Shown: positions 12,361 through 63,677, counted from the first letter of the stretch. The stretch: DNA of 64,000 nt from an uncultured Candidatus Saccharibacteria bacterium (GCA_964440975.1 CAYYKI010000001.1:2591-66590); one strand, 5' to 3'. The notes: generated by a model not told the origin, from the sequence alone. Program-made: numbers and translations.

Positions 12361-13353
<993 letters not shown>

Positions 13354-45058: not shown

Positions 45059-46444
45059 CTACTCTTCTGGCGCAGGCAAAAGTGGGCTGTTGTATTCGAA
45101 GTGGTAGTCCAGGAGATTGATATCGATATCGGCCTCGCGAAGTTGCTTGAATACTTTTTCCCTCGCTTGGTCGCTATCCTCGAACATGGTGATATTCAAC
45201 ACGCCAAGTGAGGAAACCTCGTATGTATATGTTCCGTCGTCCTTATCTTCTATAGACTTGAGCTTGCTTTCCATATCGGTTGGTACTTTGACAGTATCCT
45301 TACTCAAGATATCTATGGTGCGCGCGTTGGTTAGCACAAAAAGTCGGCCGTTTTCAGTCGTCATGGAAAGTGGCTGTTCACGATATCCCTTGTCGGTTTT
45401 TGATTGGGTGTTTGGTAGTATTCGCGTAAAGCTTTTCGTATCAACGTTCGCCTGCACGAGTGAATACGGTCGATCCTTGCTTGTAAAGTCGCTTCCAAAA
45501 ATGTAGAGGATGTTATTGTGCCAGGCCAAGCTGGCTTCGCTTGAGAAACCACCGTCGCGTAATACCGTCTTTTTTGAGTTTAGGTCTAATATGGTGAGTT
45601 TTGCTTCAGCTTCACCGTCACCCTCTCCACTGCCTTGTGCTTGCAAATACGCCGAGTGCTTGCCGTCATTTGAAACATAGATGGTTTCTGCCGCATCATC
45701 ACTCTGTGATACGGTCTTGGTTTCAACGTCGATCAGGTTTAGTACCCCAACCGCGTCAGCATCTCTCTTTATATCCGCCATGACGTAGAGAGTATTATCC
45801 GTAGCAACCACTGTTTGCGCGGCGCCTGCAACCTCGTAGCTGTCAGCCTGCCTCAAGTCTTCGCCTATCCCCACTACGGAGCTGGTATCGCCGCTGTCTG
45901 CCTCCGCCCCCTCTTCCGTGTCAGCTTCGAAGGGACTGGTAGTTACATAGAAAGGATACTTCTTATTGCCCGTGAAGCACTGTTCAAGATCGGTACCTAT
46001 AAAGCTAAAGGCTTTTGTTTGCAAGTCAAAACCCCACCAGTATTCATCATCGAGTGATTGGTTCTGAGCGACAATTATCTTGCCAAGGTCATCGTCTTCC
46101 AAATACCCTTTAGCTCTAAACACAACCTTGTTGCGTTGCTTGTTCCAGCACATTCGCTCGATAATTGGCAGTTTAAACGTCGGAGTGGTAGCGGTAGTGG
46201 CACCGGTTGCAAGATCTAATTCTGAAAAGTTTTTACCGTTAAACAACGACAGCTTCTTGCCGTCTTCACTAGACACAGCCTTTACGTCACCGCTGGTTAT
46301 GCCACTATAAATTTGCAGAGTTTCGGTGTTGTACGTTGGCCCTCGACGCGTCAGCATAAATACAACCAGCAGCACTGCCGTGGCAATCGCGCCAATGATG
46401 AAAAGTTTTTTCTTGTTGTTTTTTGGTGTGACTGTTGGGTCCAT
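45059..46444 (-). CDS. membrane-anchored extracytoplasmic beta-rich protein, last gene of the T4SS-like operon
   Basis: N-terminal TM helix LFIIGAIATAVLLVVFML. The remainder has alternating beta-strand-like segments and acidic patches. Confidence 0.45.
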   Translation of the reverse strand: MDPTVTPKNNKKKLFIIGAIATAVLLVVFMLTRRGPTYNTETLQIYSGITSGDVKAVSSEDGKKLSLFNGKNFSELDLATGATTATTPTFKLPIIERMCWNKQRNKVVFRAKGYLEDDDLGKIIVAQNQSLDDEYWWGFDLQTKAFSFIGTDLEQCFTGNKKYPFYVTTSPFEADTEEGAEADSGDTSSVVGIGEDLRQADSYEVAGAAQTVVATDNTLYVMADIKRDADAVGVLNLIDVETKTVSQSDDAAETIYVSNDGKHSAYLQAQGSGEGDGEAEAKLTILDLNSKKTVLRDGGFSSEASLAWHNNILYIFGSDFTSKDRPYSLVQANVDTKSFTRILPNTQSKTDKGYREQPLSMTTENGRLFVLTNARTIDILSKDTVKVPTDMESKLKSIEDKDDGTYTYEVSSLGVLNITMFEDSDQAREKVFKQLREADIDINLLDYHFEYNSPLLPAPEE

Positions 46445-46446
46445 GG

Positions 46447-47877
46447 CTACTCCGGTACGGATTTATATGCTTCTCTGAGGAATGGTTGTACGGTAATGAA
46501 TCTACCCGGATAATCTTTGAGACACTCGTTGGCAGAACAGCTTGGGCGAGAGGCGCCGTTGGTCATGTCAAAGTGTAGGTGTGCTTCTGTTCCGTTAGCA
46601 TTTTTGCTTTCGCCGCTATGGCCCAGTAGTTGCCCAGCAGTTATGGTATCGCCGACATGTACCACATTGCCGTCCTTAGGCATGTGGGTGTAGTAATAGT
46701 TGATGCCATCATCTCCCTTTATTTGCACATTTCGTCCGAATTTATCAGAGTACCCTGTCCGTACTACCTTACCGGGTCGCGAGGCTACTATAGGAGTGCC
46801 CGGGGGCGTAAAGATGTCAGCGGCATTGTAATGGTGGTGGCAATTGGTGTTATTATTTTCGCACCACTGATCTGGTTTTTGAGAACGTATAATCGACTTT
46901 TTTACTTGTAGTGGGAACACAAAACCACTGGCACTTACTGCGACTTGTGGCACTGTTCCGGGGGTGCACTGCTCGCTAGCCGGGGCCGCTGGGCCATCCG
47001 GTGCCGGAGATATGCCGCCTGGAATAGCATCGGCCTCATAGACGGTACCAGACTCGACTGACTGATCTGGCGCCCAGCGATACTGTAAGTCGTCACCCTG
47101 TGAGTTGCGCCTACCGCCAGACGGCCCACCGTATTGCCATTGGGCTGCATCAATAGCCTTCATTGCAGCGGGCGCCAATCCAGCAACCCGTCCATCATAT
47201 TCGGCGGGAGTTCCTTCGACATATCCCGACCAATAGCTCGGTACACTACCCCTAGAGTTGCTTTTAGTGCCCGTCCATGGTGCGGGTCCAGTTTCTATAA
47301 GGGCCGTAACCACTGCCTTCTTGGTGCGCGGGTTAATGACTAGTATTTTGCGTAGTGCGCTGTAGTACCAGCCTTTGGTGTCTTTTTCGGAGCCATTTAC
47401 TTTGCTACTACCGTCCCATTTCCAGGTGAACGGTCGCGTACGCATGTTGGAATAAAACTTTACATCAATTGGTTTAAGGATATTTTTCATAGAACCACCA
47501 ACAGCGAGAGATGGCTGGCCGGCGATATGAAGGAGTCGCACTACCCCATTTGAGTCAATAAATGCTTCACTCTCTTGCCCCGTTCCACCATGGGTTGCCG
47601 GCAGCTTATGCCCCTCAAGGGTGTCTGAGCCACCAGCTGGTATGGGCCCGGCAGGAGTGGTTGTCGTTGTGGTGGTAGGCGTGGCTGGGCAGGTGATGCC
47701 GTAGTCGCACGCATCTAGCACGTCAACATTATTTTTGCGGAGGGCTGCTTCCCGGCCTGGTGAACAGTCCTTACCGATCTTAGCGTGTACCGGTTTAGGG
47801 ACAAATGCCAACATTACAGACAGCATAAATATAGACACGGTGACAATAGCCTGTATACGATGCAGCAGCTTAGTCAT
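46447..47877 (-). CDS. secreted M23 (LytM) family peptidase
   Basis: Signal peptide. C-terminal M23 motifs HHHYNAADI (HxxxD) ... GHSGESKNANGTEAHLHFD (HxH). Confidence 0.75.
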   Translation of the reverse strand: MTKLLHRIQAIVTVSIFMLSVMLAFVPKPVHAKIGKDCSPGREAALRKNNVDVLDACDYGITCPATPTTTTTTTPAGPIPAGGSDTLEGHKLPATHGGTGQESEAFIDSNGVVRLLHIAGQPSLAVGGSMKNILKPIDVKFYSNMRTRPFTWKWDGSSKVNGSEKDTKGWYYSALRKILVINPRTKKAVVTALIETGPAPWTGTKSNSRGSVPSYWSGYVEGTPAEYDGRVAGLAPAAMKAIDAAQWQYGGPSGGRRNSQGDDLQYRWAPDQSVESGTVYEADAIPGGISPAPDGPAAPASEQCTPGTVPQVAVSASGFVFPLQVKKSIIRSQKPDQWCENNNTNCHHHYNAADIFTPPGTPIVASRPGKVVRTGYSDKFGRNVQIKGDDGINYYYTHMPKDGNVVHVGDTITAGQLLGHSGESKNANGTEAHLHFDMTNGASRPSCSANECLKDYPGRFITVQPFLREAYKSVPE

Positions 47878-51529: not shown

Positions 51530-51531
51530 GG

Positions 51532-53472
51532 CTATTGCATAGGCCCGTTAGGTTGCGTATTTTGCGGCCCGGGAGCGGGTGCTGACTCCAACGGTTCGTC
51601 TAGGTAGTCCTGGTCTTCTTCGGCGGTGGCTCGCTCCTGCTGCTGTTGCTGTAGCTGCGCGGGGTTTGTGGTGATAAGACTGGCTTCTGTGGGGCTTGGA
51701 GTGATTTGGATATGAACGTGATTCTGGCCAGCAAAGAACAAGCCCTGCCCTACCGGGAACTGACTCAGTCGCTTTCGTTCTTCACTGGTGAGCTTGAACG
51801 TGTCTGCCAGTACGTCTACGGCACTCGTGGATTGCTTGAGGAGAATTTGCATTGAGGCGTTAGCGACAATCGCCCGTCCCATGCGCGACCCCATAAAGTC
51901 TTCAACATCCTGCGTGATGGTCGTTAACCCAAGGTAGTATTTACGGCAACGCTTAGCAATGCTAAAGAGGAAGCTAGCTGAATCCTCATACTTCATTAGC
52001 TGCCACGCCTCATCAACAAGTAGCAGTCGTTTTTTCTTATCGGATTTAGTGCGATTCCAGATGTAGTTGAGCACAATATACATGGCAACTGGGCGGAGTT
52101 CGTCCTCGAGATCACGAATATTAAACACCACCAGCGCATTGTTAATGTCAACATTTGATTGCTGAGAGAAAATACCCGCAAACGTACCACTCGTATATTT
52201 GCGCAGTCGTTGGGCTAATTGTGGACCGGTGCCACCCATATGAAGCAGCGTATCGTATAGGTCGTTGATGGTTGGGGGCGGCGATTTGTGTGTCAACGGG
52301 TCGGTTGTGATCCCGGCTTTGGCATAGGTGTCGATGAGGGCTTGGTCGAGGTCGGCTTCCTCAACAGGATTAAGCGCTGGCGCGAACTGCCCGGCACCCT
52401 CGCCGGCCATTTGTGCTTGCGCCCCACCCATCATCAAGCGTAATAGCCCATGCAATGTAATGAGATTAGACCGCAAGGCGTTGTCCCCGTCGTCGGTATC
52501 GATGACCTGTGGCAAATCAAACGGATTAATGCGTGTTTGCGAATTAAGACTCAGGCGAATGTACGAACCACCGACTGCTTCACACATGCGTTGGTATTCA
52601 TTCTCCGGGTCAATAATCATCACCTCGGTGCCAAGCATCATGCTGCGGAGCGCCTCTAATTTAACCGTGAACGACTTACCGGCGCCTGCCTTTGCAAATA
52701 CCACTGAGTTAGCGTTCTCTAACGTAAAGCGGTCAAAGATCACCAGTCCCGAGTTGTGCATATTGATGCCATACAAAATACCATTCTCTTGGCTCAAATC
52801 GGCCGAGGTAAAAGGAAAGCTAGTGCTAATTGCACCCGTGTTCATGTTGCGCCTAATTTGCAGCTGATCCATAAATTGCGGGACGATGGAGTTGAATCCT
52901 TGTTCCATTTGAGCGGTTGCTGCTTTGCTATAGACGAGCTGCTGGCCAAGAATTGACTCGATTTTATGATGAATGAAATCGAGTTCTTCCAGGCTGCTCG
53001 CATATACATTCATATACAAGCCAAAGCGGAAGAACCGCTCTTCACCTACTTGGAGCTTATCTCGGAGCTCTTCGGCGTCGAGAATGGCAGCTTGCTTTCC
53101 TGGATCACGGACGCGTCCCTTCTCGTTATCAATCTGGATCCCTGCCTCTAGTTGAGAGACTTTTTTGCGCAAATTATCTAGCACCACCTGGCTCTCCACC
53201 GGATAGATATAGATAGAGATGTTCATTTCTTCATCTATGTTGATGATGGGGCTCAGCCAGCCGGTAAATATTTGACGCGGATATCCGTACACATAAAACG
53301 TGCGTGCGTAGCGGGTGCCAAGTCGGAAGTAGCCAGACTGATACTCCAAGCTGCTCGGAGCAATAAAATCGCGGAGCGCCGTTACACCCTTTTGGAACGC
53401 CTGCTCAACCTCTTGCTGTTCGCGAAGACGCTGTTCCTCTGCTATTTGAATTGGATCTTTCTTCTTTGCCAT
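51532..53472 (-). CDS. VirB4/TrbE/CagE-family type IV secretion ATPase
   Basis: N-terminal VirB4 region (DFIAPSSLEY...YFRLGTRYARTFYVYGYPRQIFTGWL), Walker A KAGAGKSF, Walker B LLLVDEAWQL. 646 aa. Confidence 0.85.
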   Translation of the reverse strand: MAKKKDPIQIAEEQRLREQQEVEQAFQKGVTALRDFIAPSSLEYQSGYFRLGTRYARTFYVYGYPRQIFTGWLSPIINIDEEMNISIYIYPVESQVVLDNLRKKVSQLEAGIQIDNEKGRVRDPGKQAAILDAEELRDKLQVGEERFFRFGLYMNVYASSLEELDFIHHKIESILGQQLVYSKAATAQMEQGFNSIVPQFMDQLQIRRNMNTGAISTSFPFTSADLSQENGILYGINMHNSGLVIFDRFTLENANSVVFAKAGAGKSFTVKLEALRSMMLGTEVMIIDPENEYQRMCEAVGGSYIRLSLNSQTRINPFDLPQVIDTDDGDNALRSNLITLHGLLRLMMGGAQAQMAGEGAGQFAPALNPVEEADLDQALIDTYAKAGITTDPLTHKSPPPTINDLYDTLLHMGGTGPQLAQRLRKYTSGTFAGIFSQQSNVDINNALVVFNIRDLEDELRPVAMYIVLNYIWNRTKSDKKKRLLLVDEAWQLMKYEDSASFLFSIAKRCRKYYLGLTTITQDVEDFMGSRMGRAIVANASMQILLKQSTSAVDVLADTFKLTSEERKRLSQFPVGQGLFFAGQNHVHIQITPSPTEASLITTNPAQLQQQQQERATAEEDQDYLDEPLESAPAPGPQNTQPNGPMQ

Positions 53473-54497
53473 TACATTGCCAACGTATTATCTAGATTAG
53501 GTTGCGAAGCTTCACCTTGTCCTTTGGTAACTACTGGCGCGGTGAGATCATCGAAGTTTTGGATCTGCTGACGGGTGGCTGTATCTGGATTGTAAACATC
53601 GTAATATAACTCTATAAGCTCCTGGGTATCGAGCGGCAGGGCCTGGATTCCCATTTGGGTGAGGCTGTTAAGCACTGCCTGAACCTGGTTGCGCAATTCT
53701 GTTTTTGCCTTTTCAAGCGTTGCCTCATCAATAACCACGGTCTCTTGCTTTTTATTGAAGCCAAAGATGTTATCGAAAAAGCTTTTACCCTTTTGGACTG
53801 TCTGGGCGGTTGTGTTCGGTGGTGTATACGGAATGACCATGTAAAACTTCTTGTCCATGATATTGGTTTGCTGGGTCAATACGGCCATAAACTCTATGTA
53901 GTCTTCCATCAAAAGTGCGAGCAGCATATTGTCGTGCTCGAGTCGGATTTTATTGAGGCGTTCCAGGTATGGGCGCATGTCAACTTTAGTGCTTTTGATA
54001 AATATCTGCACCGGAAAATAGAGCGAGTTCAAAAAGCTCTGATAACTAAACTCTACCGCCTCTCGTTCACCCTGGCTCATGAGGTCAAAGTTGATCGTCT
54101 TACACATAATAACCGACCGAAACGTTCCGTCGTTCATGATGACGACCCCGTCACGAATTTCGCTTATCTTGAGCGTATTTTGGGTACTGTTCGGGTTTGT
54201 CTTGGCCGGTGGCGTCTGACCGAGTGGCTTGCCGTTCTGGTCGACTTGGCCAGCTTGCACCTGACCTGGTACAGCTGGTGTCCCCACTGGCCCACCAGTG
54301 GGTACACCGGGCGTCATAGAGGCATCGGGAATCGCCTGCTGCGCCTGCATCATTGGAGTGACCGCATATTGCGCAACATGCGCCTGCTGATCGTTGGGCG
54401 TTGCTTGTGGGGGTGGAGGCGTGGTTGGCACTCCCTGGTACCCAGGGGGAGCTTGACCGCCGGCCGGTGGTTGGAATTGGTTTTGTTGTGGATCCAT
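53472..54497 (-). CDS. T4SS-associated hypothetical protein with Pro/Gln-rich disordered N-terminus
   Basis: 341 aa, no TM helix. Its stop overlaps the VirB4-like start, indicating translational coupling. Confidence 0.4.
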   Translation of the reverse strand: MDPQQNQFQPPAGGQAPPGYQGVPTTPPPPQATPNDQQAHVAQYAVTPMMQAQQAIPDASMTPGVPTGGPVGTPAVPGQVQAGQVDQNGKPLGQTPPAKTNPNSTQNTLKISEIRDGVVIMNDGTFRSVIMCKTINFDLMSQGEREAVEFSYQSFLNSLYFPVQIFIKSTKVDMRPYLERLNKIRLEHDNMLLALLMEDYIEFMAVLTQQTNIMDKKFYMVIPYTPPNTTAQTVQKGKSFFDNIFGFNKKQETVVIDEATLEKAKTELRNQVQAVLNSLTQMGIQALPLDTQELIELYYDVYNPDTATRQQIQNFDDLTAPVVTKGQGEASQPNLDNTLAM

Positions 54498-54550: not shown

Positions 54551-55591
54551 CTAATGTAGTTTGATGACGACTTCGTCACCGTCACCACTGGCCACCCTAT
54601 CAGCTTCGCGCGCTATTACATCTAAGTTTAAGTCATCACGCTGCGATAACTCAAGTTTAGCAGATTCAGGGAGCGAAACGGTAGTGGCTTTATCGTCTTT
54701 GGCGGGAGTACCCCTATGGCTTTTGCTTGGATCGAGTACGTGCTGGCGCATCGACGAGGGGTATGGGTCGTAATGTGGTGCCGCACCTCCTGCGTTAATA
54801 AACGGCATGGTACTACCATTGTCGACTGTCGTTGTAGGAGTGGTTGGCGGAGCCTGTGTTGGGGTGATGACCGATGGCTGAGTGGCGCTTGATTGATACG
54901 GTGCGGCCTGATTATTCCAGGCGGTCACCGGTTGTCCGGCTTGGGCTGATTGCATCTGGGTAAGGGCGGCATCACGAACACTGCTGGTGGCTTTGCTGGC
55001 CAATTCGTCCATGTGATGGGCTAAGTAGCTAGCGTTAGGGTCTAATATATCGTCTGCTGCCGTTATGTCGCTATCTGGAACCATTTGCGGGAGCGCTGTG
55101 GCGGGCACTAAACGGTCGGATGGGCCGCTGGAAGGAAATAAATCATTCGACGAATCATTCACGTAGGCATTCTTTGTTGCCCATCCGCGGCTATCGATGG
55201 TCGTGGCTAGTATCTCCAGTCGAGAACGGACTTCCCTTTGATTGAGTCCATTGGAATATTGGTGTTCAATTTTTTTCGGAACCGTAATGCGTACCAGCTC
55301 TTCCATGCCGGCCTGATCCCACACTCGTCGCCGGGGCTTGAGCAGGAAACGCAACCTCGCGCCAAGATACACATCCGTGGGTTGATCGCGCTGAAACGGT
55401 GCGGCCAGGTAGCCAAACAAGGCGATGCCGGGCAAGAAAGGAATAACCAACAGCGGCTGTGCCTTACCCGCTAAAAACGCCAAATAACACAGCAGTATAG
55501 TAATAATTGCAAAAATAAACTGCTTGAGGGTCAACGGCCCTAAGAGCTTATCTTCGGCCTCGACATCTTGCGGTACTTTATACGTCGACAT
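54551..55591 (-). CDS. T4SS-associated membrane protein, possible VirB3-like N-terminal domain with C-terminal extension
   Basis: N-terminal ~100 aa with two closely spaced TM helices (FIFAIITILLCYLAFLAG / LLVIPFLPGIALFGYLAAPF). A small hairpin membrane gene just upstream of the VirB4 region is typical of VirB3/PrgI/ConD. Assignment by topology and position only. Confidence 0.35.
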   Translation of the reverse strand: MSTYKVPQDVEAEDKLLGPLTLKQFIFAIITILLCYLAFLAGKAQPLLVIPFLPGIALFGYLAAPFQRDQPTDVYLGARLRFLLKPRRRVWDQAGMEELVRITVPKKIEHQYSNGLNQREVRSRLEILATTIDSRGWATKNAYVNDSSNDLFPSSGPSDRLVPATALPQMVPDSDITAADDILDPNASYLAHHMDELASKATSSVRDAALTQMQSAQAGQPVTAWNNQAAPYQSSATQPSVITPTQAPPTTPTTTVDNGSTMPFINAGGAAPHYDPYPSSMRQHVLDPSKSHRGTPAKDDKATTVSLPESAKLELSQRDDLNLDVIAREADRVASGDGDEVVIKLH

Positions 55592-55634
55592 GGTCGACTA
55601 AAGTATACCGTATGTGGCTAAATGGGGCCTAGTT

Positions 55635-57179
55635 TTATATTTGGCCGCGGCGTTGCCAGCGGTTGCGACTTGCTTTGCGAGCTGAGTATGTTTCGGCGAC
55701 GGTATCCATCGGGTGAAGGCGGTTGCCTCTTTGGTTGCCGGTACGCAGGGCGTCTTTAATGGCATGACGCACTCCATTGCGCTGGAACTCCTTGCCTGAC
55801 CGAACAACGGTGACCAGGCTGTCTTTAAGCTGTGCAAAGCGGTCACGATAGTCACGCTCGTCGAGGCCAACTTTCATGCGTGGACCCTTGGGGCTTACTT
55901 TTACACGTAGGCCAAAGCCACTAAACGCTTCATCGTATCGTATCTTAGCTTGGTCCATAAGGGCTGCCCGGTCCTTCTTGTTTGGGTTCGCCTCGATAGC
56001 TTCCATGAGCCGCTTAAAATCCAGTTCAATGTCGAGCATTTGTGATTCAAGGTCGACAGCGCGTAGCACCACACGTTCGATATGGACGCCATTTTGTTGT
56101 TCAATCGGGGGTTTTTCTTCAGGGCGTGGAACTAATTTTTCTCGATCTTTACCCCTTGGGCGTAAGTAGTTAAGGTCGTATTGTAGTTGCTCTACTTCTG
56201 CTTTACGGGCAGCTTGCAAAGCTTTGATTGCTGCAACTTCTGCCGATATCTGATCAGATAGAAGCTGATGCTGAATTTCTTTTTCCGCATCACTTAGCGT
56301 GTCGTCGGCGTTTATTGCACGTTTGGCTGCAGATGCCTTTGGGCCATCAAATCCGTACGTAAAAGGACTCTCGTCAACTGGGGGTATTTGCAAATTTGCG
56401 TCGTAACGGGCGTCTAATGCCTTGTTGGCCTCAACCCACTGCTGGGTGCTGAGTTTTTGCAGTGCTTCACGTGCTACTGAGTCGTATCCTAAAAATAGCT
56501 GTTGTGAGCGGATGGATGCTCGGAATAGCCACTTGTAGCGGTTCTGGCTTGCTTCTAGATCAGCCGAGCTAAGATCTGCCCAATCCTGCCGTTCAATAGC
56601 CATTTGCTGATTAGTGGCCTCGTATACCGCGCCAAATACAAACCGGTTAACTTCGGCAAATACCAGTAGCTGTCGATCGGTAAACTGGCGAGTATCGATT
56701 AAGGTTGGATCTTCTAGTTCGGCGTCTGCTCCTGTAAGTTGTCCGGCAGCAGCCATGCGCTCTATGACATCTCGGGTTAAGCCAAAGATTCGGGCGTGGT
56801 GGCGCATCTCCAGGTCTTTGATAAAAGGAATCTGTCCTTCTACGTTGGCAGCGTCAAGATCGGCATCACCTGCTTCGTTAAACATTTGGGATGCAGCATT
56901 CCACTTACCCTCAGCTCGCAAAGCGGTTGCTTTAGCTCGTAGCTGACTGGCTTTTGAGCGGTATTCCTCCGCCTGAATAGGCATAAAGTCGGAGTTTGCA
57001 TCCTCGTACTGCAGGGTTGTAGCGGTGTGGTACACAACTTCATCAAACCGGTTCTGTAGGGTTGGGTCGGCGTCAAAATGATCACCGATCATTTCGGTGT
57101 AGGCATCTTGGTGTGTTGCTAACTCTTCGGGCTTAATTGCCCTCGAGTAGCGATCTTCTTGTAGCGAAGAAGTTTCCAT
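55635..57179 (-). CDS. T4SS-associated hypothetical protein (largely alpha-helical, 514 aa)
   Basis: No TM helices or catalytic motifs recognised. Sits between the VirB6-like and VirB3-like genes. Confidence 0.4.
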   Translation of the reverse strand: METSSLQEDRYSRAIKPEELATHQDAYTEMIGDHFDADPTLQNRFDEVVYHTATTLQYEDANSDFMPIQAEEYRSKASQLRAKATALRAEGKWNAASQMFNEAGDADLDAANVEGQIPFIKDLEMRHHARIFGLTRDVIERMAAAGQLTGADAELEDPTLIDTRQFTDRQLLVFAEVNRFVFGAVYEATNQQMAIERQDWADLSSADLEASQNRYKWLFRASIRSQQLFLGYDSVAREALQKLSTQQWVEANKALDARYDANLQIPPVDESPFTYGFDGPKASAAKRAINADDTLSDAEKEIQHQLLSDQISAEVAAIKALQAARKAEVEQLQYDLNYLRPRGKDREKLVPRPEEKPPIEQQNGVHIERVVLRAVDLESQMLDIELDFKRLMEAIEANPNKKDRAALMDQAKIRYDEAFSGFGLRVKVSPKGPRMKVGLDERDYRDRFAQLKDSLVTVVRSGKEFQRNGVRHAIKDALRTGNQRGNRLHPMDTVAETYSARKASRNRWQRRGQI

Positions 57180-57234
57180 AACTAAAACATTAGCATAAAT
57201 AACTGTTTAAGTCAATATTATGTTAATGCAAGTA

Positions 57235-60200
57235 CTATGGCGCTGAATCGTCAGGGCTTGATGAGTTAGCTCCTTCGTCGATCATAGCAATCTCTCCTGC
57301 GGTATATCTTGGATTGACTCCGCTGTAATCAGAAGGTGTCGGCTCCGGGTGTTGCTCGCTCGCATGCGCTGGGTCGTGCTCAATAGCAATTGCAGTACCC
57401 TCCTGCGCGACCTTTTGATTACCAATATTGCCTTGAGGTAAGTTTGTACTGAGCAACGATCTAACCCGTTTAGCATTATCAACGGTCTCTGCGTCAACTG
57501 CATCGCTGCCCTCTAGGTTGAGTACTGCATTTGAAGATTCGGCCAGGTTTTTAACTGAATTACCCTTAAGCCGTCCTGCTTGCAGTGCATCTACCGACTT
57601 GCCACCCTCAACATGGGCGCGGTGCTTGTTTCGCTCCAGTCGTTCGTCTGAAGCGGCTGAAGGCCCACGTAAATGGGCTCGTGCGTCGTCAATGTCACTC
57701 ATACTGACGCCTGATAGCTCGTTGCGATACGCTTCTTTCTGTTTGGCCTTGTTGAAGCCCCATAACGATTCTTGGGTCTCAAAGTTGTCGCCGGCAATAC
57801 GGGCAATAGTTTCGGATACGTCTCGAGCGTCCGTAAAGGCGGTGCCGTTCATCACCATCTGTTTAAAGGCTGCTTCGCGGTTATTGAAGCCGAGGGCGCC
57901 AGCGGCACGGCGGGCGGTAACCTTGCCGTCACGCTCTGCTTTGGCGAGGGCGGCTTGACCTGCTGCGCTCGCCTCCCAATCGGCCCTACTTTCGACGCCA
58001 CTTTCGGCAAAGGCTTTGTCGGCATAGAAATCTTTCATGCCCACTTCGGCAGCACGTTGGTTGCGATACGTTGCGGCGCGGATGAGGTCGTCGCGTCGTG
58101 CCGAGGCTACCCAACGTGGGTCGCGGAGTCTTTCTTCTTGGGCTGCAGAGCGTCGGCTGGCATATACCTCACGACCACGTGCTCCGAGGCCAAAGCGGCC
58201 ACCAACACCCGCGCCAAGCCCACCACTGACACGGTTGAAACCGCGCCCGAACGGGTTGCTATCCTTGAAGCGGTTACCGGTAGCATTAGCTGCGCGCCTC
58301 GCGGCATTTTGTTCGGCAGTGCGTTTGCGGCGAGTATCCAAGATTCCCCTTGAGCGGTCGTTGACCATGCCGCCAACGGTAGAGATTAGCCCGCCCGCAA
58401 ACTTAAAGGTAAACGGAATCATCATGTAAGGCGCAAAATACGCAGCAATTGCAGCAAGTTTAATAAAGGTATTGCCGCCACCATCAGTTTGGGCAAGCCA
58501 TGGGGCAACATTCCAGTTTGACCAGATGTTGCCAATACTACCTCCGCTCGCAAAACCAGACATAATCAGCGAACTGGCAATGCGACCGGATACGAGCAGC
58601 ATAACGATGAGTGGATACATGAGCAGAGACTTGGTAAAGAAGTTCCACCAGGCTTTAAAGACTCCCTGAGTATTAGGCAGAATCCAGGCAATAAAGGCTA
58701 TAGGCGCGCCGACGATACAAGCAACAATCACCAAGTAACGCACGAGCACCACAAAGAACGCGGCCAGCACTGCAAAACTTACGGCTATAAGGACGGTGCC
58801 GAGTGAGCTCCAGAGCCCAATACCTGATGCAATAGCAGCAGCTCCACCACCAACGAATGTTAGTAGAGAGTCTGCTCCCCCTATGTCTACGTTTTGTAGC
58901 ACTCCCGATTTTGCAAACGGAGCTAAAATCAGATCCTTAGTTGTGTCACCGAGGGCCTGGATCAAGCCAACCAACCAGGCGGCAACAAACCATGATAACT
59001 GCACAACAATAGCAGCGATAACTAACCTTGGGAGTGCTTTTTTGACGGTATACGCACTAAGCGACTCAATCGAAATAATCTGCGACAAAATGATAATGAG
59101 CGTAATGATAATGAGCAGCACGTTAGCTATCGATCGGAACGACGCCCAAGAAACATACAACCCGCGATCCTTGCTATCCGTTTGAGTAGCAGCATTTGCT
59201 GAAATATCAAATCGTAGCAATAGCACCAGCTGATCTCCAAACCAGCCAACCAAGTCATCAAGTATTTTGATGCCTGCACAGAGGATCCATGAGAGCGTGT
59301 AGCCACTGGCTTCGCAGGGGTCGACATCCTGGTTTGCGATGCCGCTGGGTGCGATCTCCAGTTCCGATGTCCCGCCATTTTTCAGGTCCTCTGCTTCAGC
59401 GTCGGCATAGGCTTGCGCCAACGATTTGTTTTTGAGTTCTTCGAGGAGGTCGCCGCAACTCACTTGAACGTTGTCCTCGGTCTTATCAGCGCCGGCATTG
59501 TACACTCCCCAGCCGACGTTGGCTTCTTCTTCGTCTTGCAGTACGCCGTTCACCTCTACTGGCTTACCGTCTTTGACAATCCATATTTTCTCGTGTCTAT
59601 TTGTAGAGCCTGCAATATCCTCGTCTTTCATGTCGGTGCTAAAGCCACAGGCACTATTTCGTAGTGCTGAGTAGTATAGCCACCATCTCGCACCAGGTGA
59701 GAGGTTGTCTATGCCGCCATCGCCAGGTTCGGCTTTTTCTGCTTTACTCTCTACATAAGCCTTGAAAATTGCTTCGAAAGCCCGCGACGAAATATCTCTG
59801 GTACCGCTCCCTGGTGAATATAGGATGTCTATGAGTTCTTTTGTGTCTTTTATACCCATGTAAGGTAGGTATTTGTCCATTTCTTCGACATTAGTGCACA
59901 CAATCTCACCATCATCTTTTTCTACATGCTCTCCAATATATGCCGTGCGCGATCCGTCAAATATATCAATGAGTTGATTTCTACGTAATTCGCTGCCGGT
60001 TCCACTCTGCGGTTCTAATTTTGTGCCAATGTGTAGACCAGGAGATGTATCAGGCCCACCTTGTATACAATTTCGAAAAATTCCCCAGAACACCGAATGT
60101 GTCTTAGCCTCGTTCTGTAGTTTTTTGGCATTTTCATTTTTTGCGTAGGCTTGCTCTACTGGGTGGACGGTTTGCACAATGTTAAACGCAAACACAGCCA

Positions 60201-60237
60201 GGACAACCCCAAGAGCAATTCGCATACGGTTTTTCAT
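57235..60237 (-). CDS. VirB6/TrbL-like polytopic channel protein candidate with large N-terminal ectodomain and ~400-aa Arg/Ala/Gly-rich C-terminal tail
   Basis: Signal/TM at the N-terminus (MKNRMRIALGVVLAVFAF). A cluster of about 6-8 TM helices in the middle (residues ~380-640). Low-complexity C-terminal tail. First gene of the operon. Confidence 0.45.
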   Translation of the reverse strand: MKNRMRIALGVVLAVFAFNIVQTVHPVEQAYAKNENAKKLQNEAKTHSVFWGIFRNCIQGGPDTSPGLHIGTKLEPQSGTGSELRRNQLIDIFDGSRTAYIGEHVEKDDGEIVCTNVEEMDKYLPYMGIKDTKELIDILYSPGSGTRDISSRAFEAIFKAYVESKAEKAEPGDGGIDNLSPGARWWLYYSALRNSACGFSTDMKDEDIAGSTNRHEKIWIVKDGKPVEVNGVLQDEEEANVGWGVYNAGADKTEDNVQVSCGDLLEELKNKSLAQAYADAEAEDLKNGGTSELEIAPSGIANQDVDPCEASGYTLSWILCAGIKILDDLVGWFGDQLVLLLRFDISANAATQTDSKDRGLYVSWASFRSIANVLLIIITLIIILSQIISIESLSAYTVKKALPRLVIAAIVVQLSWFVAAWLVGLIQALGDTTKDLILAPFAKSGVLQNVDIGGADSLLTFVGGGAAAIASGIGLWSSLGTVLIAVSFAVLAAFFVVLVRYLVIVACIVGAPIAFIAWILPNTQGVFKAWWNFFTKSLLMYPLIVMLLVSGRIASSLIMSGFASGGSIGNIWSNWNVAPWLAQTDGGGNTFIKLAAIAAYFAPYMMIPFTFKFAGGLISTVGGMVNDRSRGILDTRRKRTAEQNAARRAANATGNRFKDSNPFGRGFNRVSGGLGAGVGGRFGLGARGREVYASRRSAAQEERLRDPRWVASARRDDLIRAATYRNQRAAEVGMKDFYADKAFAESGVESRADWEASAAGQAALAKAERDGKVTARRAAGALGFNNREAAFKQMVMNGTAFTDARDVSETIARIAGDNFETQESLWGFNKAKQKEAYRNELSGVSMSDIDDARAHLRGPSAASDERLERNKHRAHVEGGKSVDALQAGRLKGNSVKNLAESSNAVLNLEGSDAVDAETVDNAKRVRSLLSTNLPQGNIGNQKVAQEGTAIAIEHDPAHASEQHPEPTPSDYSGVNPRYTAGEIAMIDEGANSSSPDDSAP

Positions 60238-60374
60238 ATTCACGGTTATTATAGGCCTTTGGCGATACGGCCACAAGTATTTGATAGCCATTTCTGGTCA
60301 GCTCAATTCGCTGAGGCGTTTACAGCTTACGGCAGATATGATTGAATGAACATATTCGGTATACTAATAAAAAG

Positions 60375-61124
60375 ATGAAACACAACTCTATTCTAAGTTT
60401 AGCTCACCAAGCCACTCGTGTGGCTGTGCTGCTGTTGGCACTTGCTGCACTGCTAGGGCAAGCTACCCCTGCGCGCGCCCAAAGTCCCGACTCCATCGAC
60501 CGTGATGTCTCGCCCGATTTTGCAGCAACGTGTTATCAGCAGAAAGGCACCTTTAAGTATGACAACCCAGATACTCCCACCGACGAGAATATGACGCTTA
60601 AAAAATATGAAGAGATTAACTGTGCAGATTTGCAGTCAGTTGACGGAGGTAAAGATTACCAAGCAGCAACGGCTTGCTACGAGCTCGTCACAACAAGTGA
60701 AGGTGGTCGCCAAGCAAAAACCGTGCTGGTTGCAAATTGCAACGAAATCCGTTTTTTGCGCGCCCTGGAGCAAAACAATGGCGCCACCGAAGAAGATCCT
60801 GATGGCGGCGGCGGTGGAGGCTCAGAAACCACACCAAAATCACCCCGTAACTTTGGCAACTTGGAGTCAAATGACTTACCCGTGCAGGACCAGCCGTTTT
60901 TTAAGGACTACCTCATCCCCATTGTTAATATTCTTTCGGGTGGTGTTGTAGCGCTGGCAGCGGTCTTTATGGTTGTGGCTGGAGTGCAATATTCGACCGG
61001 TCGCGACAACCCGCAAATGGTTGCTGCGGCTAAGGCGCGTATCGTTAATGTACTGATTGGCTTGCTCGCCTACCTATTCATCTATGGCTTCTTGCAGTGG
61101 ATTATTCCAGGGGGCGCACTGTAA
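60375..61124 (+). CDS. VirB2/TrbC-like pilin paralog 1 (large N-terminal domain)
   Basis: Signal peptide, ~150-aa head, then the conserved C-terminal two-helix hairpin ...GVVALAAVFMVVAGVQYSTGRDNPQMVAAAKARIVNVLIGLLAYLF. Confidence 0.5.
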   Translation: MKHNSILSLAHQATRVAVLLLALAALLGQATPARAQSPDSIDRDVSPDFAATCYQQKGTFKYDNPDTPTDENMTLKKYEEINCADLQSVDGGKDYQAATACYELVTTSEGGRQAKTVLVANCNEIRFLRALEQNNGATEEDPDGGGGGGSETTPKSPRNFGNLESNDLPVQDQPFFKDYLIPIVNILSGGVVALAAVFMVVAGVQYSTGRDNPQMVAAAKARIVNVLIGLLAYLFIYGFLQWIIPGGAL

Positions 61125-61525
61125 TGTTTAGCTATGTAGCAGTGACCGTGAGCCAGTGGGGCTTTCAGCTAGCACAACTTGCCGGAACCTGCGATAAAAA
61201 CCGCACCTTTTTGGGGCTCAAGCCGTGGTATCACTACGCAAACTTTGACGCCAGCTGCGCCTACCTGCCAGCTAATGGCAGCGGGTTTACCGGTGCTGAT
61301 GTTTGGCCGATATTAGCGGTTGTATTCGAAGATTTGTTAGTGATTGCCGCGTATGTGGCGATAGCTTATGTGCTGGTGGGCTCTTTTCAGATGATGACCG
61401 CACAGGGCGAGCCAGATAAGTTCAAGTCTGCACGTGGTACGGTAATCAATGCCCTGATCGGCTTGGTGATTGCAGTAATTGGCGGCCGATTGGTCGGTTT
61501 CCTCTTTAACGGAGTCTTTAAATGA
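61124..61525 (+). CDS. VirB2/TrbC-like pilin paralog 2
   Basis: Start overlaps the previous stop (TAATG). C-terminal hairpin LVIAAYVAIAYVLVGSFQMMTAQGEPDKFKSARGTVINALIGLVIAVIGG. Confidence 0.5.
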   Translation: MFSYVAVTVSQWGFQLAQLAGTCDKNRTFLGLKPWYHYANFDASCAYLPANGSGFTGADVWPILAVVFEDLLVIAAYVAIAYVLVGSFQMMTAQGEPDKFKSARGTVINALIGLVIAVIGGRLVGFLFNGVFK

Positions 61526-61824
61526 TTAGTCAGCTATATTTGTTCTTTGGCCAAACGTGCAACAACCCGTATGGCATTGTTATTCCCTGCCGCGATACTT
61601 CAAGCAATCCAATCGAAACAGCCATTAAGCTGGCGATTGCTGTTGCAGCTGGAGTAAGTATCTTATTTGTCACCATCGGCGCCTTTCGGTACGTCATAAG
61701 TGCCGGAGATCCAGGTAATATTTCGAAAGCCAAAAACACCATCATTTATGCGCTCGTTGGACTTGTTGTTTCAGTGACAGTGTATGGACTGGTAACCTTT
61801 GTAATTGATCGGGCGGCTGGATAA
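61522..61824 (+). CDS. VirB2/TrbC-like pilin paralog 3
   Basis: ATGA overlap with the previous gene. IAVAAGVSILFVTIGAFRYVISAGDPGNISKAKNTIIYALVGLVVSVTVYG. Confidence 0.55.
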   Translation: MISQLYLFFGQTCNNPYGIVIPCRDTSSNPIETAIKLAIAVAAGVSILFVTIGAFRYVISAGDPGNISKAKNTIIYALVGLVVSVTVYGLVTFVIDRAAG

Positions 61825-61825
61825 T

Positions 61826-62260
61826 ATGAAGCGACGATTAGTACAACTCGCGTTGGCAATTGTAGCTGTACTTTCGATGGCCTCTGTTTCGCCGGTGCAC
61901 GTAGATGCCCTTGACTGTTCAAAAGACCCTGATCGGGGATCGGCTGCCTGTAATCCAGAAAACCAGAACAACCCCTGCGTTAACCCCGAAGTTGCCAAGA
62001 GCGCATTGTGCGAAAGTACGCGCAACAACCAGGATCCTATTAATGGTCCCGACGGCATACTGACCCGCGCGGTTGAATTGATGTCATATTTAGTTGGTAT
62101 CGCCTCTATAGTTGTTGTAATCGTTGGTGCCATTAGGTTCACCACTTCTTCCGGCGACGCCAATGGTATTTCGGCAGCAAAAAAGATGATAGTTTACGCA
62201 TTAATCGGTATTGTAGTTGCTATATTCGCCCAAGCTCTGGTAATTTTGGTATTGAAATGA
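61826..62260 (+). CDS. VirB2/TrbC-like pilin paralog 4 (Cys-rich variable head)
   Basis: Signal peptide MKRRLVQLALAIVAVLSMASVSPVHVDA, a head with 4 Cys, and hairpin LVGIASIVVVIVGAIRFTTSSGDANGISAAKKMIVYALIGIVVAIFAQALV. Confidence 0.55.
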   Translation: MKRRLVQLALAIVAVLSMASVSPVHVDALDCSKDPDRGSAACNPENQNNPCVNPEVAKSALCESTRNNQDPINGPDGILTRAVELMSYLVGIASIVVVIVGAIRFTTSSGDANGISAAKKMIVYALIGIVVAIFAQALVILVLK

Positions 62261-62655
62261 TGAAAAAACTCAGTCTACTCGTTCTCCCCATTGCTGCCAT
62301 GTTTAGTTTGTTGGCTGCGCCTGTAATTGCCACAGCGCAATCTAAAACTGCCGCGCAAATCGCCTGCGAATCAGCTGGTGGTAGCTGGAGTGGCAGCGGT
62401 TGTGTAAAAAGCAATCCGGCCGAAAAAGGTGTAGACGACACGGTGCGCGCCGCCGTCAGCATCTTGTCGTACATCGCTGGTGTCGCTTCTATAGTTATGG
62501 TTATCGTTGGTGGAATCAAGTATGTCGTATCAAGCGGTGATTCTAATGCGGTCGGTAGCGCCAAGAATACCATCACCTATGCCTTGGTCGGTTTAGTGAT
62601 CGCTATTATGGCACAAGCTATGGTGCGATTTGTGTTTACGAAGTCAACGAGTTAG
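62257..62655 (+). CDS. VirB2/TrbC-like pilin paralog 5
   Basis: ATGA overlap. Signal peptide, 2-Cys head (ACESAGGSWSGSGC), hairpin IAGVASIVMVIVGGIKYVVSSGDSNAVGSAKNTITYALVGLVIAIMAQAMVRFV. Confidence 0.6.
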   Translation: MMKKLSLLVLPIAAMFSLLAAPVIATAQSKTAAQIACESAGGSWSGSGCVKSNPAEKGVDDTVRAAVSILSYIAGVASIVMVIVGGIKYVVSSGDSNAVGSAKNTITYALVGLVIAIMAQAMVRFVFTKSTS

Positions 62656-62722
62656 CCTTGCATAGCTGGGGTCAAACTGCTAGCATACAAAAGATAAGAT
62701 AGTTACTAAACAGGAAAACAAC

Positions 62723-63136
62723 ATGATACAACGCATAAAGTTATTAATCGTTAGCTTGGGTGCTGTTTTTGCCGTAGCGGCACCAGCAGTAGCAGTTTCG
62801 GCGCAGACTGGCGTTACTGAACCAAACGTCGCGTGTGGAATTGAACTTAAGGGTACCAATTGTGGTACAAGTGTTAATCCAGACGAAGGTGAGAACCGCG
62901 TTGTTAACATTATCAAAACTATCATCAACGTTCTCTCGTTGATTGTTGGTGCGATTTGTATCATCATGATTGTCTTCGGCGGCTTTAAGTACATGACATC
63001 AGGTGGTGAGTCGGCCGGTGTGAGTGGTGCAAAGAATACTATTCTGTACGCTGTTGTCGGCTTGGTAGTCGTATTGCTAGCGCAGGCGATTGTCCGCTTT
63101 GTGTTCACCCGAACAACCACCAACCCTACTCCGTAA
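62723..63136 (+). CDS. VirB2/TrbC-like pilin paralog 6
   Basis: Signal peptide, 2-Cys head (VACGIELKGTNCGTS), hairpin LIVGAICIIMIVFGGFKYMTSGGESAGVSGAKNTILYAVVGLVVVLLAQAIVRFV. Confidence 0.6.
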   Translation: MIQRIKLLIVSLGAVFAVAAPAVAVSAQTGVTEPNVACGIELKGTNCGTSVNPDEGENRVVNIIKTIINVLSLIVGAICIIMIVFGGFKYMTSGGESAGVSGAKNTILYAVVGLVVVLLAQAIVRFVFTRTTTNPTP

Positions 63137-63156
63137 GTACCGCACGAACGAAAACT

Positions 63157-63186
63157 ACAGCCGGCCCGCAGCCGGCTGTTTTTATT
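63157..63186 (+). terminator. rho-independent terminator after pilin paralog 6
   Basis: Perfect 9-bp stem ACAGCCGGC / GCCGGCTGT with a 5-nt loop, followed by TTTTTATT. Confidence 0.5.
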
Positions 63187-63221
63187 ACCCCCGTTGCTAA
63201 CCAGTTGCTACCAGTGGTAAA

Positions 63222-63677
63222 ATGCCAAGTATGAGACACCGCATCAACCTACTGGTCCTAGCTTTATTAACTCCGCTGATTTCCGTTGTCGCTGCCCTAT
63301 CGGTTCAGCCGCAAATGGTATCTGCGCAAGATTCTAGTGTTACTCTGCCCGACAATAGCACCAGCGTGACCCAAGGCCCGGTTGCCTGTGGTATTGAGCT
63401 TACTACCGGTACTAACTGTGCGGTTGATGGCACAAAGGGCGAAAGTAAGGTACTTGGGATCATCAAGCAGGTTATAAATGTTACTTCCCTGCTGGTAGGC
63501 GCTATTTGTGTGATTATGATTATATTTGGTGGCTTTAGGTATATGGTTTCAGGGGGCGACTCTTCTGGAGTATCAAACGCCAAGAACACCATTCTATACG
63601 CCGTTGTTGGTTTGATCATCGTGTTGCTTGCGCAAGCACTGGTTCGCTTCGTGTTCTCGCGTGCGACGGCAGCCTAG
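63222..63677 (+). CDS. VirB2/TrbC-like pilin paralog 7
   Basis: Signal peptide, 2-Cys head (VACGIELTTGTNCAVDG), hairpin LLVGAICVIMIIFGGFRYMVSGGDSSGVSNAKNTILYAVVGLIIVLLAQALVRFV; closest sibling of paralog 6. Confidence 0.6.
   Translation: MPSMRHRINLLVLALLTPLISVVAALSVQPQMVSAQDSSVTLPDNSTSVTQGPVACGIELTTGTNCAVDGTKGESKVLGIIKQVINVTSLLVGAICVIMIIFGGFRYMVSGGDSSGVSNAKNTILYAVVGLIIVLLAQALVRFVFSRATAA

Follow-up and report, generated by a model that had tools for sequence, protein, structure and literature searches.

The locus next to the replication origin of this Saccharibacterium very probably encodes a chromosomal type IV secretion system (T4SS) that is shared in conserved form by the class Saccharimonadia as a whole, has its collinear ortholog in SEML1_0004-0019 of Southlakia epibionticum, and descends from monoderm MPF-FATA conjugation machinery whose DNA-processing module has been lost; instead of conjugating, it probably links epibiont and host as a contact-dependent conduit. 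The analyzed window is a single stretch of 64 kb from a lineage of the Patescibacteria/CPR, and its VirB4 shares 78-92% identity with proteins that carry the name Saccharibacteria or Saccharimonadales. The preliminary description of the window had proposed a chromosomal, non-conjugative Gram-positive-type (MPF-FATA) T4SS with VirB2-like pilins at the replication origin. All tests made support this proposal, and every ORF claimed in it is present in the position described. The proposal is correct, yet such a system, with pilins, without a relaxase or coupling protein, located beside dnaA and not conjugative, was already published for Saccharibacteria in 2023-2025 (PMC10633639, PMC12102498, PMC12857230), and the T4SSs have been surveyed phylum-wide (Quinonero-Coronel 2025, PMC12102498). 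The small addition of the present work is a 514-aa ORF that is a near-orphan in a hypervariable slot of the core operon.

The T4SS operon includes eight tightly packed minus-strand genes (45059-60237), with intergenic gaps of 55, 43, 53, -1, 2, -8, and 2 nt, and it adjoins the rnpA-yidC-jag / dnaA-dnaN-recF side of the window. Seven VirB2-like pilin genes are located divergently on the plus strand (60342-63677; Table 1). The genes that the locus was said to abut, dnaA, dnaN, and recF, are all confirmed by Pfam, and rnpA, yidC, and jag are found upstream of dnaA. The recF gene is convergent with the operon, and 12 nt separate its stop codon from that of the last gene in the operon. Three of the four perfect DnaA boxes in the 64-kb window flank dnaA. 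The far border of the locus is formed by an Hsp20 gene, likewise in Southlakia (SEML1_0020) and in the related genome L082.

Table 1. Features of the T4SS locus and the adjacent origin region (positions in the window)
Feature	Coordinates	Strand	Evidence or remark
DnaA-box-like 9-mers, four, two perfect (TTATCCACA), upstream of dnaA; candidate oriC element	40226..40339	.	Motif positions
dnaA	40414..41808	+	Pfam Bac_DnaA 7.6e-69
DnaA-box-like sites, three, dnaA-dnaN spacer	41824..42121	.	Motif positions
dnaN	42166..43266	+	Three DNA_pol3_beta domains
recF	43979..45046	+	Pfam SMC_N 4.5e-21
Anchored protein, 461 aa, last operon gene, variable position	45059..46444	-	TM at residues 14-32
M23 metallopeptidase, 476 aa, membrane-anchored or secreted, peptidoglycan endopeptidase type	46447..47877	-	Peptidase_M23 1.5e-18, residues 351-440
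Multidomain envelope protein, 1219 aa	47870..51529	-	Lipase_GDSL_2 and LAS-like motif
VirB4-family ATPase, 646 aa	51532..53472	-	NCBIfam conju_CD1110, PDB 4AG5, Pfam P-loop_TraG
TrsD-like protein, 341 aa, soluble, homologous to N-terminal region of full-length VirB4	53472..54497	-	NCBIfam TrsD 6.8e-8, below cutoff
PrgI-family (VirB3-like) protein, 346 aa	54551..55591	-	Pfam PrgI 1e-10, residues 5-91, above cutoff
Soluble near-orphan, 514 aa, predicted all-helical	55635..57179	-	Slot between virB6-like gene and prgI
VirB6/TrbL-like polytopic membrane protein, 1000 aa from ATG at 60237	57235..60237	-	PF19590 TrbL_3, TrwI/VirB6 fold matches
Pilin 1, VirB2-like C-terminal hairpin, long N-terminal extension	60342..61124	+	PF18895 1.6e-6
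Pilin 2	61097..61525	+	PF18895 2.1e-5, 24.9 bits, just under 26.6 cutoff
Pilin 3	61522..61824	+	PF18895 9.8e-10
Pilin 4	61805..62260	+	PF18895 6.8e-7
Pilin 5	62257..62655	+	PF18895 1.7e-9
Pilin 6	62723..63136	+	PF18895 1.9e-12; TrbC 6.4e-6
GC-rich hairpin then T-run, terminator-like, between pilins 6 and 7	63157..63179	+	Consensus match only
Promoter-like site after terminator-like hairpin	63194-63223		Consensus match only
Pilin 7	63222..63677	+	PF18895 4.7e-12
Hsp20 gene, 3' end, cut by window end	63804..64000	-	Translation; 97% identical to L082 Hsp20

VirB4 is the single P-loop transfer ATPase among the genes of the locus. Its identification had been set beforehand as the refutation test for the proposed system, and the 646-aa protein passes the family cutoff of NCBIfam conju_CD1110 (4.1e-109, 365.9 bits, cutoff 325). 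It also matches the Mycoplasma ICE VirB4 family (2e-73), Pfam P-loop_TraG (1.6e-26), and, in a profile search, the solved monoderm VirB4 in PDB 4AG5 (1.2e-53), and contains the invariant Walker A (G263-S267) and Walker B (D487-E488) motifs. The matches to CedB (1.9e-13) and CedD are weak, lie far below the cutoffs, and reflect the generic P-loop region. The protein begins at positions 177, 292, and 239 of the CD1110, VirB4_plasma, and VirB4_CagE profiles, and the TrsD-like protein covers positions 2-118, 99-290, and 18-179 of the same profiles, respectively. The TrsD-like stop codon overlaps the virB4 start (TAATG), and each of the 80 related loci encodes a homologue directly in front of virB4; a profile-profile comparison between the TrsD-like protein and the VirB4 family of the window gave no significant match.

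The VirB3-like hairpin protein claimed for the operon is present, as evidenced by a PrgI match, but its gene had been misassigned: the product of 53472-54497 has no predicted transmembrane (TM) segment and is the TrsD-like protein, whereas the hairpin protein is encoded at 54551-55591. Its TM hairpin (residues 24-42 and 46-64) is followed by a long low-complexity tail, and PrgI homologues were found in 70 of the 80 related loci. The polytopic membrane protein, whose longest ORF extends to 60291, is composed of an N-terminal signal/TM segment, an extracytoplasmic domain, a core of 5-6 TM segments at approximately 380-580, and a helical C-terminal domain. Its proposed VirB6-like identity agrees with two lines of evidence: (i) the database entry of the protein (P0123) carries a precomputed match to PF19590 TrbL_3, which was not reproduced with the local Pfam copy, and (ii) the best three Foldseek matches of its predicted model (mean pLDDT 54.6) in PDB are R388 TrwI/VirB6, at a weak score (E ~0.06, TM 0.40-0.45). 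Weak matches to Pfam TrbL were observed for 3 of 36 orthologues.

The wall-degrading components are encoded downstream of virB4. The M23 peptidase assignment holds, and the protein also matches peptidoglycan hydrolase families of NCBIfam. The 1219-aa protein consists of a charged N-terminus, a TM segment (~119-147), an approximately 800-aa domain that is conserved downstream of virB4 among relatives, an SGNH/GDSL esterase domain (882-1035), and a C-terminal region with an invariant SxHxxGxAxD...HxxHxH motif in the alignment (1136-1204); tblastn matches to it were obtained in 27 of 80 loci. The combination of SGNH and LAS peptidase domains claimed for this protein is thus confirmed for SGNH (Lipase_GDSL_2, 35 bits against a cutoff of 32.9), whereas the LAS region, having no Pfam or PDB sequence match, is suggested by the motif and by the Hedgehog/DD-peptidase fold published for the C-terminus of the Southlakia counterpart SEML1_0007. 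The last operon gene, whose product had been described as membrane-anchored, encodes a large extracytoplasmic domain with a single N-terminal TM anchor. This 461-aa protein matches no family in Pfam, NCBIfam, or PDB, has a homologue in only one of the 80 species loci, and is 43% identical to its L082 counterpart.

All seven plus-strand ORFs described as VirB2/TrbC-like pilin genes match PF18895 (T4SS_pilin), and six exceed its gathering score. The alignment of their products revealed signal-peptide-like N-termini and a conserved hairpin, outside of which the other pilins are 15-22% identical to pilin 1, whose likely start is the ATG at 60375. For each of the seven, the best match is to the Mycoplasma ICE Mbov_0395 'pilin-like' family, at sub-threshold scores.

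The gene for the 514-aa near-orphan fills the slot that lies between prgI and the virB6-like gene. A search against 5.8e9 proteins matched the protein only to itself, and among 1.84e9 representatives a single homologue was detected (P0122, 31% identity, E 7e-21), which occupies the same slot in L082. The two counterparts are 25-31% identical, whereas VirB4 and Hsp20 of the same genome are 92% and 97% identical, respectively. The AF2 model is all-helical and poor (pLDDT 41), and no sequence match to a VirB8-like NTF2-fold protein (PrgL/TcpC/TraM) was found. Among other Saccharibacteria, about half of the related loci have an empty slot, and unrelated soluble orphan ORFs fill it in others; since so many loci have no gene there, the slot gene cannot be a conserved essential cargo. 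Two of the eight operon proteins, those encoded at 45059-46444 and 55635-57179, remain without a family, not three as had been counted.

The families of VirB4, PrgI, and TrsD come from monoderm conjugative elements, and the locus, with a GC content of 0.498, is somewhat richer in GC than the 40 kb upstream of it (0.455), as might be expected if the locus were an integrated conjugative element, or its remnant, lying beside recF by chance. This explanation is close to refuted. Among 54 related species with enough flanking sequence, 53 have recF-dnaN 4.7-8.6 kb downstream of virB4, in the identical position and orientation relative to recF-dnaN-dnaA. Across the species loci, conservation is higher for VirB4 (78-84% identity) than for DnaA (59-75%), DnaN (49-61%), and RecF (35-60%). 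The absence of a relaxase, VirD4, and integrase from the window, as first described, was borne out by searches of all ORFs of the 64 kb, which yielded none of these and no recognisable NTF2-like (VirB8-like) gene, and no direct repeats flanking the locus were found that could represent att sites. Because relaxase, coupling protein, and integrase are missing from the locus, it most probably does not conjugate, although a VirD4-like gene may lie elsewhere in the genome, as does the non-essential one of Southlakia. Furthermore, its counterpart in S. epibionticum ML1, SEML1_0004-0019, is essential for growth on the host according to Tn-seq (Wang 2023, PMC10633639).

The gene order in Southlakia is dnaA, dnaN, recF, two exported proteins, a hydrolase, a 1113-aa LAS protein, VirB4, a 293-aa protein, PrgI, VirB6-like proteins, six pilins, and Hsp20. 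The window shares with this system (PMC10633639), and with the 'Patescibacteria clade' T4SS (PMC12102498), (i) the borders, formed by dnaA-dnaN-recF at one end and by Hsp20 at the opposite end, (ii) the strands and order of beta-rich exported protein(s), hydrolases, LAS-bearing protein, VirB4, TrsD-like protein, PrgI, VirB6-like protein, and divergent PF18895 pilins, and (iii) the lack of a relaxase or coupling protein. Membership of the window's VirB4 in this clade, which is nested in MPF-FATA, is supported by its identity values and NCBIfam CD1110 score. Unlike Southlakia, the window encodes seven pilins instead of six, one VirB6-like protein instead of two, M23, SGNH, and LAS-like hydrolases instead of lysozyme/CHAP and LAS, an unrelated 461-aa anchored protein as the last gene product, and, in the place of the NTF2-like (VirB8-fold) protein, for which no gene was recognised here, the 514-aa soluble, predicted helical near-orphan.

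The MPF-FATA systems, exemplified by the CD1110 family of C. difficile CTn2, pCF10 prg, pGO1 trs, and the Mycoplasma ICE, resemble the locus in having a VirB4 above the CD1110 cutoff, a PrgI-family VirB3-like protein, a TrsD-like protein (in pGO1), and a membrane-anchored multidomain wall hydrolase comparable to PrgK/TraG, and in lacking an outer-membrane core. In contrast to them, the locus has no relaxase, T4CP, integrase, or oriT context, is not on a mobile element, and lacks a recognisable VirB8/NTF2-like gene; VirB2-like pilins are present here and absent from walled Gram-positive MPF-FATA systems. In Helicobacter pylori ComB and Sulfolobales Ced, a single VirB4-family ATPase acts as the motor without VirD4 or VirB11. 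Further components of these importers are a polytopic protein, either VirB6-like or CedA, and small membrane proteins with a hairpin, and Ced works together with type IV pili. The window locus likewise has VirB4 as its sole motor, without VirD4 or VirB11. The differences are that ComB is a diderm system with VirB7-10, and that Southlakia can do without ComEC-dependent competence.

Judging by what the homologous parts do, the following mechanism may be proposed. VirB4, whose N-terminal region appears to be separately encoded as the translationally coupled TrsD-like protein, would supply energy and dock on a membrane platform formed by the PrgI/VirB3-like hairpin and the VirB6/TrbL-like polytopic protein. 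The membrane-anchored hydrolases (M23, SGNH esterase, and LAS-like peptidase) would open the epibiont's own wall around the machine. Up to seven Sec-exported VirB2-like pilins would then be extracted from the membrane and polymerised into a putative pilus or tube, which may contact the host bacterium carrying the epibiont; tubular structures have been reported at a parasite-host interface (10.64898/2026.06.21.733656).

Such a contact-dependent conduit between epibiont and host is more likely than conjugation, and the direction of transport through it can be assigned only tentatively. We slightly favor the uptake of macromolecules, for example nucleic acids, from the host over effector export, because a VirB4-only machine without VirD4 and VirB11 resembles the importers ComB and Ced, and because these organisms cannot make nucleotides; the uptake idea has been discussed (PMC11665869, PMC12857230). 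Export, in which epibiont proteins would be injected into the host for nutrient release or defence suppression, as by pathogen T4SSs, is a realistic possibility that we hold slightly less probable than the reverse. It was the first speculation in the field, and non-conjugative T4SSs are, as generally known, mostly exporters (PMC12857230). The fast-evolving soluble 514-aa ORF of the core operon, which has no signal peptide, looks as effector or specificity genes often do, and so does the occupation of this slot by unrelated soluble ORFs in many relatives. However, this slot is often empty, no coupling protein is encoded at the locus to recruit cytoplasmic substrates, the distant T4CP (VirD4-like) homologue of Southlakia is non-essential, and no effector is known.

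It is very unlikely that the machine translocates nothing and only assembles a pilus for adhesion of the epibiont to its host, with variable pilins setting the host range. The divergence of the seven pilin paralogues, the much faster evolution of exposed parts compared with VirB4, and the arrays of 2-11 pilins across Patescibacteria, for which a role in host range has been suggested, would fit such a function. Yet two type IV pili already serve adhesion and motility in Saccharibacteria (PMC11623550), the conserved, essential components include a VirB6-like channel protein and PrgI, and an obligate epibiont would still need a route for building blocks.

Lineage-specific cargo of the T4SS or factors of host specificity may have their hot spot in the slot that separates prgI from the virB6-like gene, although we consider this rather unlikely. 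The slot proteins could be translocated effectors or adaptors acting in lieu of the absent coupling protein, in which case they would offer a first clue to the cargo of this essential machine.

[quoted passage not shown] The authors of that work described a Gram-positive-like composition and pilins of an unusual kind, and noted that neither a coupling protein nor a relaxase is present; nearly all of the genes listed above were found essential by Tn-seq (PMC10633639). A survey of 2,474 virB4 genes of Patescibacteria revealed several features of these systems: (i) the virB4 clade is nested in MPF-FATA, (ii) the neighboring genes encode TrsD, PrgI, VirB6 and VirB1-like proteins, as well as arrays of 2-11 VirB2-like pilins, and (iii) relaxases are nearly absent, and dnaA and dnaN are close by (Quinonero-Coronel 2025, PMC12102498). 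A review from 2025 lists this machinery as a newcomer in the T4SS superfamily (PMC12857230).

In the window, eight minus-strand ORFs are separated by gaps of 55, 43, 53, -1, 2, -8 and 2 nt, consistent with a single operon, and seven plus-strand ORFs diverge from them; the ORF coordinates, with recF, dnaN and dnaA to the left, agree with the preliminary description. The genes rnpA, yidC and a jag/KhpB-like gene lie farther left than dnaA, and the right end of the window falls inside the Hsp20 gene. DnaA-box-like 9-mers are clustered just upstream of dnaA and in the dnaA-dnaN spacer, and these two sites contain three of the four perfect DnaA boxes of the whole window. If the clusters around dnaA mark the origin, the 15-kb operon would be transcribed head-on to replication; its orientation relative to the origin region is the same in Southlakia and related loci. 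The 712-nt gap between dnaN and recF is occupied by a 201-aa ORF with neither a Pfam or NCBIfam match nor a homologue among 80 related loci, where, unlike in the window, dnaN and recF are usually adjacent.

Features of the window and amino acid identity of the encoded proteins to those of L082, the closest relative with a full locus
Feature	Coordinates	Strand	Identity to L082 (%)
1380-aa protein	1090-5232	-	
Apparently split tRNA gene	5271-5904	-	
Group I intron, complete Rfam match	5320-5560		
HNH-type endonuclease ORF	5502-5840		
LexA-like repressor	5991-6437		
Local GC peak	10000-13000		
ORF in the GC peak	11192-12100		
DnaA-box cluster upstream of dnaA	40226-40339		
DnaA-box clusters around dnaA	40226-42121		
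201-aa ORF	43322-43927	-	
recF	43979-45046		
T4SS operon	45059-60237	-	
461-aa protein		-	43
M23 peptidase		-	54
1219-aa protein		-	51
VirB4 (646 aa)	51532-53472	-	92
TrsD-like protein	53472-54497	-	79
PrgI / VirB3-like protein	54551-55591	-	63
514-aa protein	55635-57179	-	25
VirB6-like protein	57235-60237	-	42
Seven pilins	60342-63677	+	53-81
Hairpin with T-run and promoter-like site	63157-63223	+	
Hsp20			97

The assignment of the 646-aa protein to VirB4, which anchored the preliminary description, is confirmed by a match to the CD1110 family of VirB4-like conjugal transfer ATPases above the NCBI curated cutoff (4.1e-109, 365.9 bits vs 325), by a match of its profile to the solved VirB4 of Thermoanaerobacter (PDB 4AG5, 1.2e-53), and by invariant Walker A and Walker B residues. 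Further NCBIfam matches are to the VirB4 of Mycoplasma ICEs (Mbov_0397 family, 2e-73) and to general models (VirB4/CagE, TraC). The preceding gene, whose stop overlaps the virB4 start (TAATG), had been taken for a possible VirB3-like membrane hairpin protein. This proved incorrect: its product has no predicted transmembrane segment and is TrsD-like (TrsD/TraD family, 6.8e-8, under the family cutoff), and the hairpin, at residues 24-64, belongs to the PrgI / VirB3-like protein encoded by the adjacent gene (Pfam PrgI, 1e-10). The TrsD-like protein aligns to N-terminal positions of three VirB4 profiles (CD1110, 2-118; VirB4_plasma, 99-290; VirB4_CagE, 18-179), and in these profiles alignment of the 646-aa protein does not begin until positions 177, 292 and 239, respectively. 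Given this complementary coverage, the gene pair looks like a split VirB4. When the TrsD-like family was compared directly, profile against profile, with the VirB4 family of the window, no significant match emerged (both alignments are of low diversity), and nothing was retrieved from the PDB with the TrsD-like profile.

The first gene of the operon encodes the VirB6-like protein, which is predicted to be polytopic; a precomputed TrbL_3 match (PF19590) is listed in the database entry of this protein but was not reproduced by a local Pfam scan of the protein and its fragments at E up to 10. A model built from database homologues (mean pLDDT 54.6, 70-88 in the membrane core) had TrwI/VirB6 of the R388 T4SS as its three best fold matches among 350,542 PDB chains, all of them weak (E about 0.06, TM 0.40-0.45).

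Downstream of virB4, the 1219-aa protein combines a transmembrane anchor, an approximately 800-aa domain common to the same-position gene in other species, and an SGNH/GDSL domain. Its C-terminal segment carries the invariant SxHxxGxAxD...HxxHxH, typical of LAS metallopeptidases. The LAS domain proposed initially is a putative assignment based on this motif and the published fold of the Southlakia counterpart. The following genes encode an M23 peptidase (Pfam) and a membrane-anchored 461-aa protein with no recognisable family in Pfam, NCBIfam and PDB sequence searches. Nothing useful was retrieved when PDB sequences were queried with the 1219-aa protein or its C-terminus, with the 461-aa protein, or with the pilin profile.

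All seven plus-strand proteins match the T4SS pilin family PF18895, and several also match TrbC/VirB2 weakly. They share a C-terminal hydrophobic helix-loop-helix, and most have a signal-peptide-like N-terminus and a cysteine pair. In NCBIfam, each of them matches best to the "Mbov_0395 family pilin-like conjugal transfer protein" of Mycoplasma ICE, below the 40-bit cutoff in every case (E 3e-9 to 1e-4). Taken with the VirB4 match to the neighboring Mbov_0397 family, this is a hint that some monoderm MPF-FATA elements may already possess hairpin proteins of the VirB2 type. Relative to L082, the best conserved pilins are 6 and 7 (81% and 79%, respectively). Between their genes, a strong GC-rich hairpin with a T-run is followed by a promoter-like site, which suggests that the last pilin may be transcribed on its own; the promoter scan was at chance level (20 sites vs 20.5 expected).

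The interval between the virB6-like gene and prgI is a hypervariable slot. Its occupant in the window is a soluble 514-aa protein, predicted to be all-helical (poor model, pLDDT 41). A word-indexed search of 5.8 billion proteins retrieved only the protein itself, and HMMER, run exhaustively on 1.84 billion representatives, retrieved a single relative, encoded in the same slot of L082 (P0122; 31% identity, E 7e-21). An iterative HMM search of 1,263 ORFs of related loci added no members to the family and did not connect the slot ORFs. In about half of the species loci the slot is empty, the virB6-like gene being followed directly by prgI; occupied slots contain one to four ORFs of 125-785 aa (loci L003-L082 of related species). 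These ORFs include an unrelated 664-aa ORF in L081, another close relative, and apparent riboflavin genes in L033; the others encode mostly soluble proteins that are mutually unrelated by BLAST and have no Pfam domain where tested. In the corresponding region, Southlakia encodes another VirB6-like protein, its second, together with an NTF2-like protein that is non-essential.

Several features outside the locus were also observed. A tRNA gene is apparently split by a group I intron of ~560 nt that carries the HNH-type endonuclease ORF. ARAGORN found no tRNA in the window; the 5' half, TCCGGGGTAGCTCAGCGGTAGAGCGGGTGGCTGT, begins at 5904, and the 3' half (T-arm, acceptor stem, CCA) ends near 5271. 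After in-silico splicing, ARAGORN calls a tRNA whose identity, Asn-GUU, Thr-UGU or other, is set by the exact splice sites. This gene and the LexA-like repressor gene are neighbors of the gene for the 1380-aa protein, an SNF2-type helicase fused to a class I methyltransferase domain (Pfam), which is possibly a defence or mobile-element-related gene. The local GC peak (0.546 vs about 0.46 around) coincides with an ORF without a family match, where long antisense ORFs are present.

Comparison with related genomes argues that the locus is an old chromosomal feature, inherited vertically and under strong constraint. VirB4 has thousands of close relatives, the best 80-100% identical, which, where named, belong to Candidatus Saccharibacteria, Saccharimonadales or Patescibacteria; all 80 loci from a scan with one genome per species belong to this group. 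Surface-polysaccharide genes and a type IV pilin-like gene elsewhere in the window fit such an organism. The TrsD-like gene was found in all 80 loci; the counts for PrgI, the VirB6-like gene and pilins were 70, 60 and about 50, limited mostly by contig ends. Sequence downstream of virB4 extends for at least 9.5 kb in 54 loci, and in 53 of them recF lies on the opposite strand, 4.7-8.6 kb from virB4, followed by dnaN and usually dnaA; VirB4 identity in these loci (78-84%) exceeds that of DnaA (59-75%), DnaN (49-61%) and RecF (35-60%). The fixed position beside recF and the high conservation of VirB4 make a recently integrated element very unlikely. No direct repeats bracket the locus, the only matches being chance ones of 16-21 nt within genes, and Pfam scans of the ORFs of the whole 64-kb window detected no relaxase, VirD4/TcpA-type coupling protein, VirB11, integrase or NTF2-like protein. 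Accessory genes show turnover: partial matches to the 1219-aa protein were found in 27 of the 80 loci, to the M23 protein in eight and to the 461-aa protein in one. The initial interpretation as a chromosomal, non-conjugative, Gram-positive-type T4SS is right, and it is already published; the system is not of a new kind. Our additions are small: the conservation gradient along the locus, the complementary coverage of VirB4 profiles by two adjacent genes, the sub-threshold best match of the pilins to the Mbov_0395 family, and the hypervariable slot with its near-orphan occupant; we found no description of this slot in the publications consulted.

Based on the known roles of homologous parts, VirB4 and its separately encoded N-terminal region would dock on two membrane partners, PrgI and the VirB6-like protein, the anchored hydrolases would open the wall, and the pilins would be exported by Sec, inserted into the membrane, extracted, and polymerised to a pilus or tube reaching the host cell. 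Conjugation is very unlikely, because the window lacks a relaxase and a coupling protein. Two functions have been proposed, effector delivery and uptake of host molecules (PMC11665869, PMC12857230). We lean slightly and tentatively towards uptake, to which we give somewhat less than an even chance. Four points favor it. A machine driven by VirB4 alone resembles ComB and Ced, and, to our knowledge, Saccharibacteria lack nucleotide synthesis. In addition, ComEC-dependent competence is dispensable in Southlakia, and a relative is reported to feed on host RNA, with tubular structures at the interface (preprint 10.64898/2026.06.21.733656). Effector export by the T4SS, argued for chiefly by the fast evolution of the soluble slot proteins, is a little less probable than uptake.

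The window offers a further well-resolved instance of this locus, whose rigid fixation at the replication origin it confirms. VirB4, the TrsD-like protein and PrgI are its frozen parts, whereas the VirB6-like ectodomain, the hydrolases, the pilins and the slot gene turn over quickly and are natural candidates for host-range determinants or cargo. The T4SS of Patescibacteria belongs to a small number of machines with a known essential role in the epibiotic life of this huge, mostly uncultured bacterial radiation.
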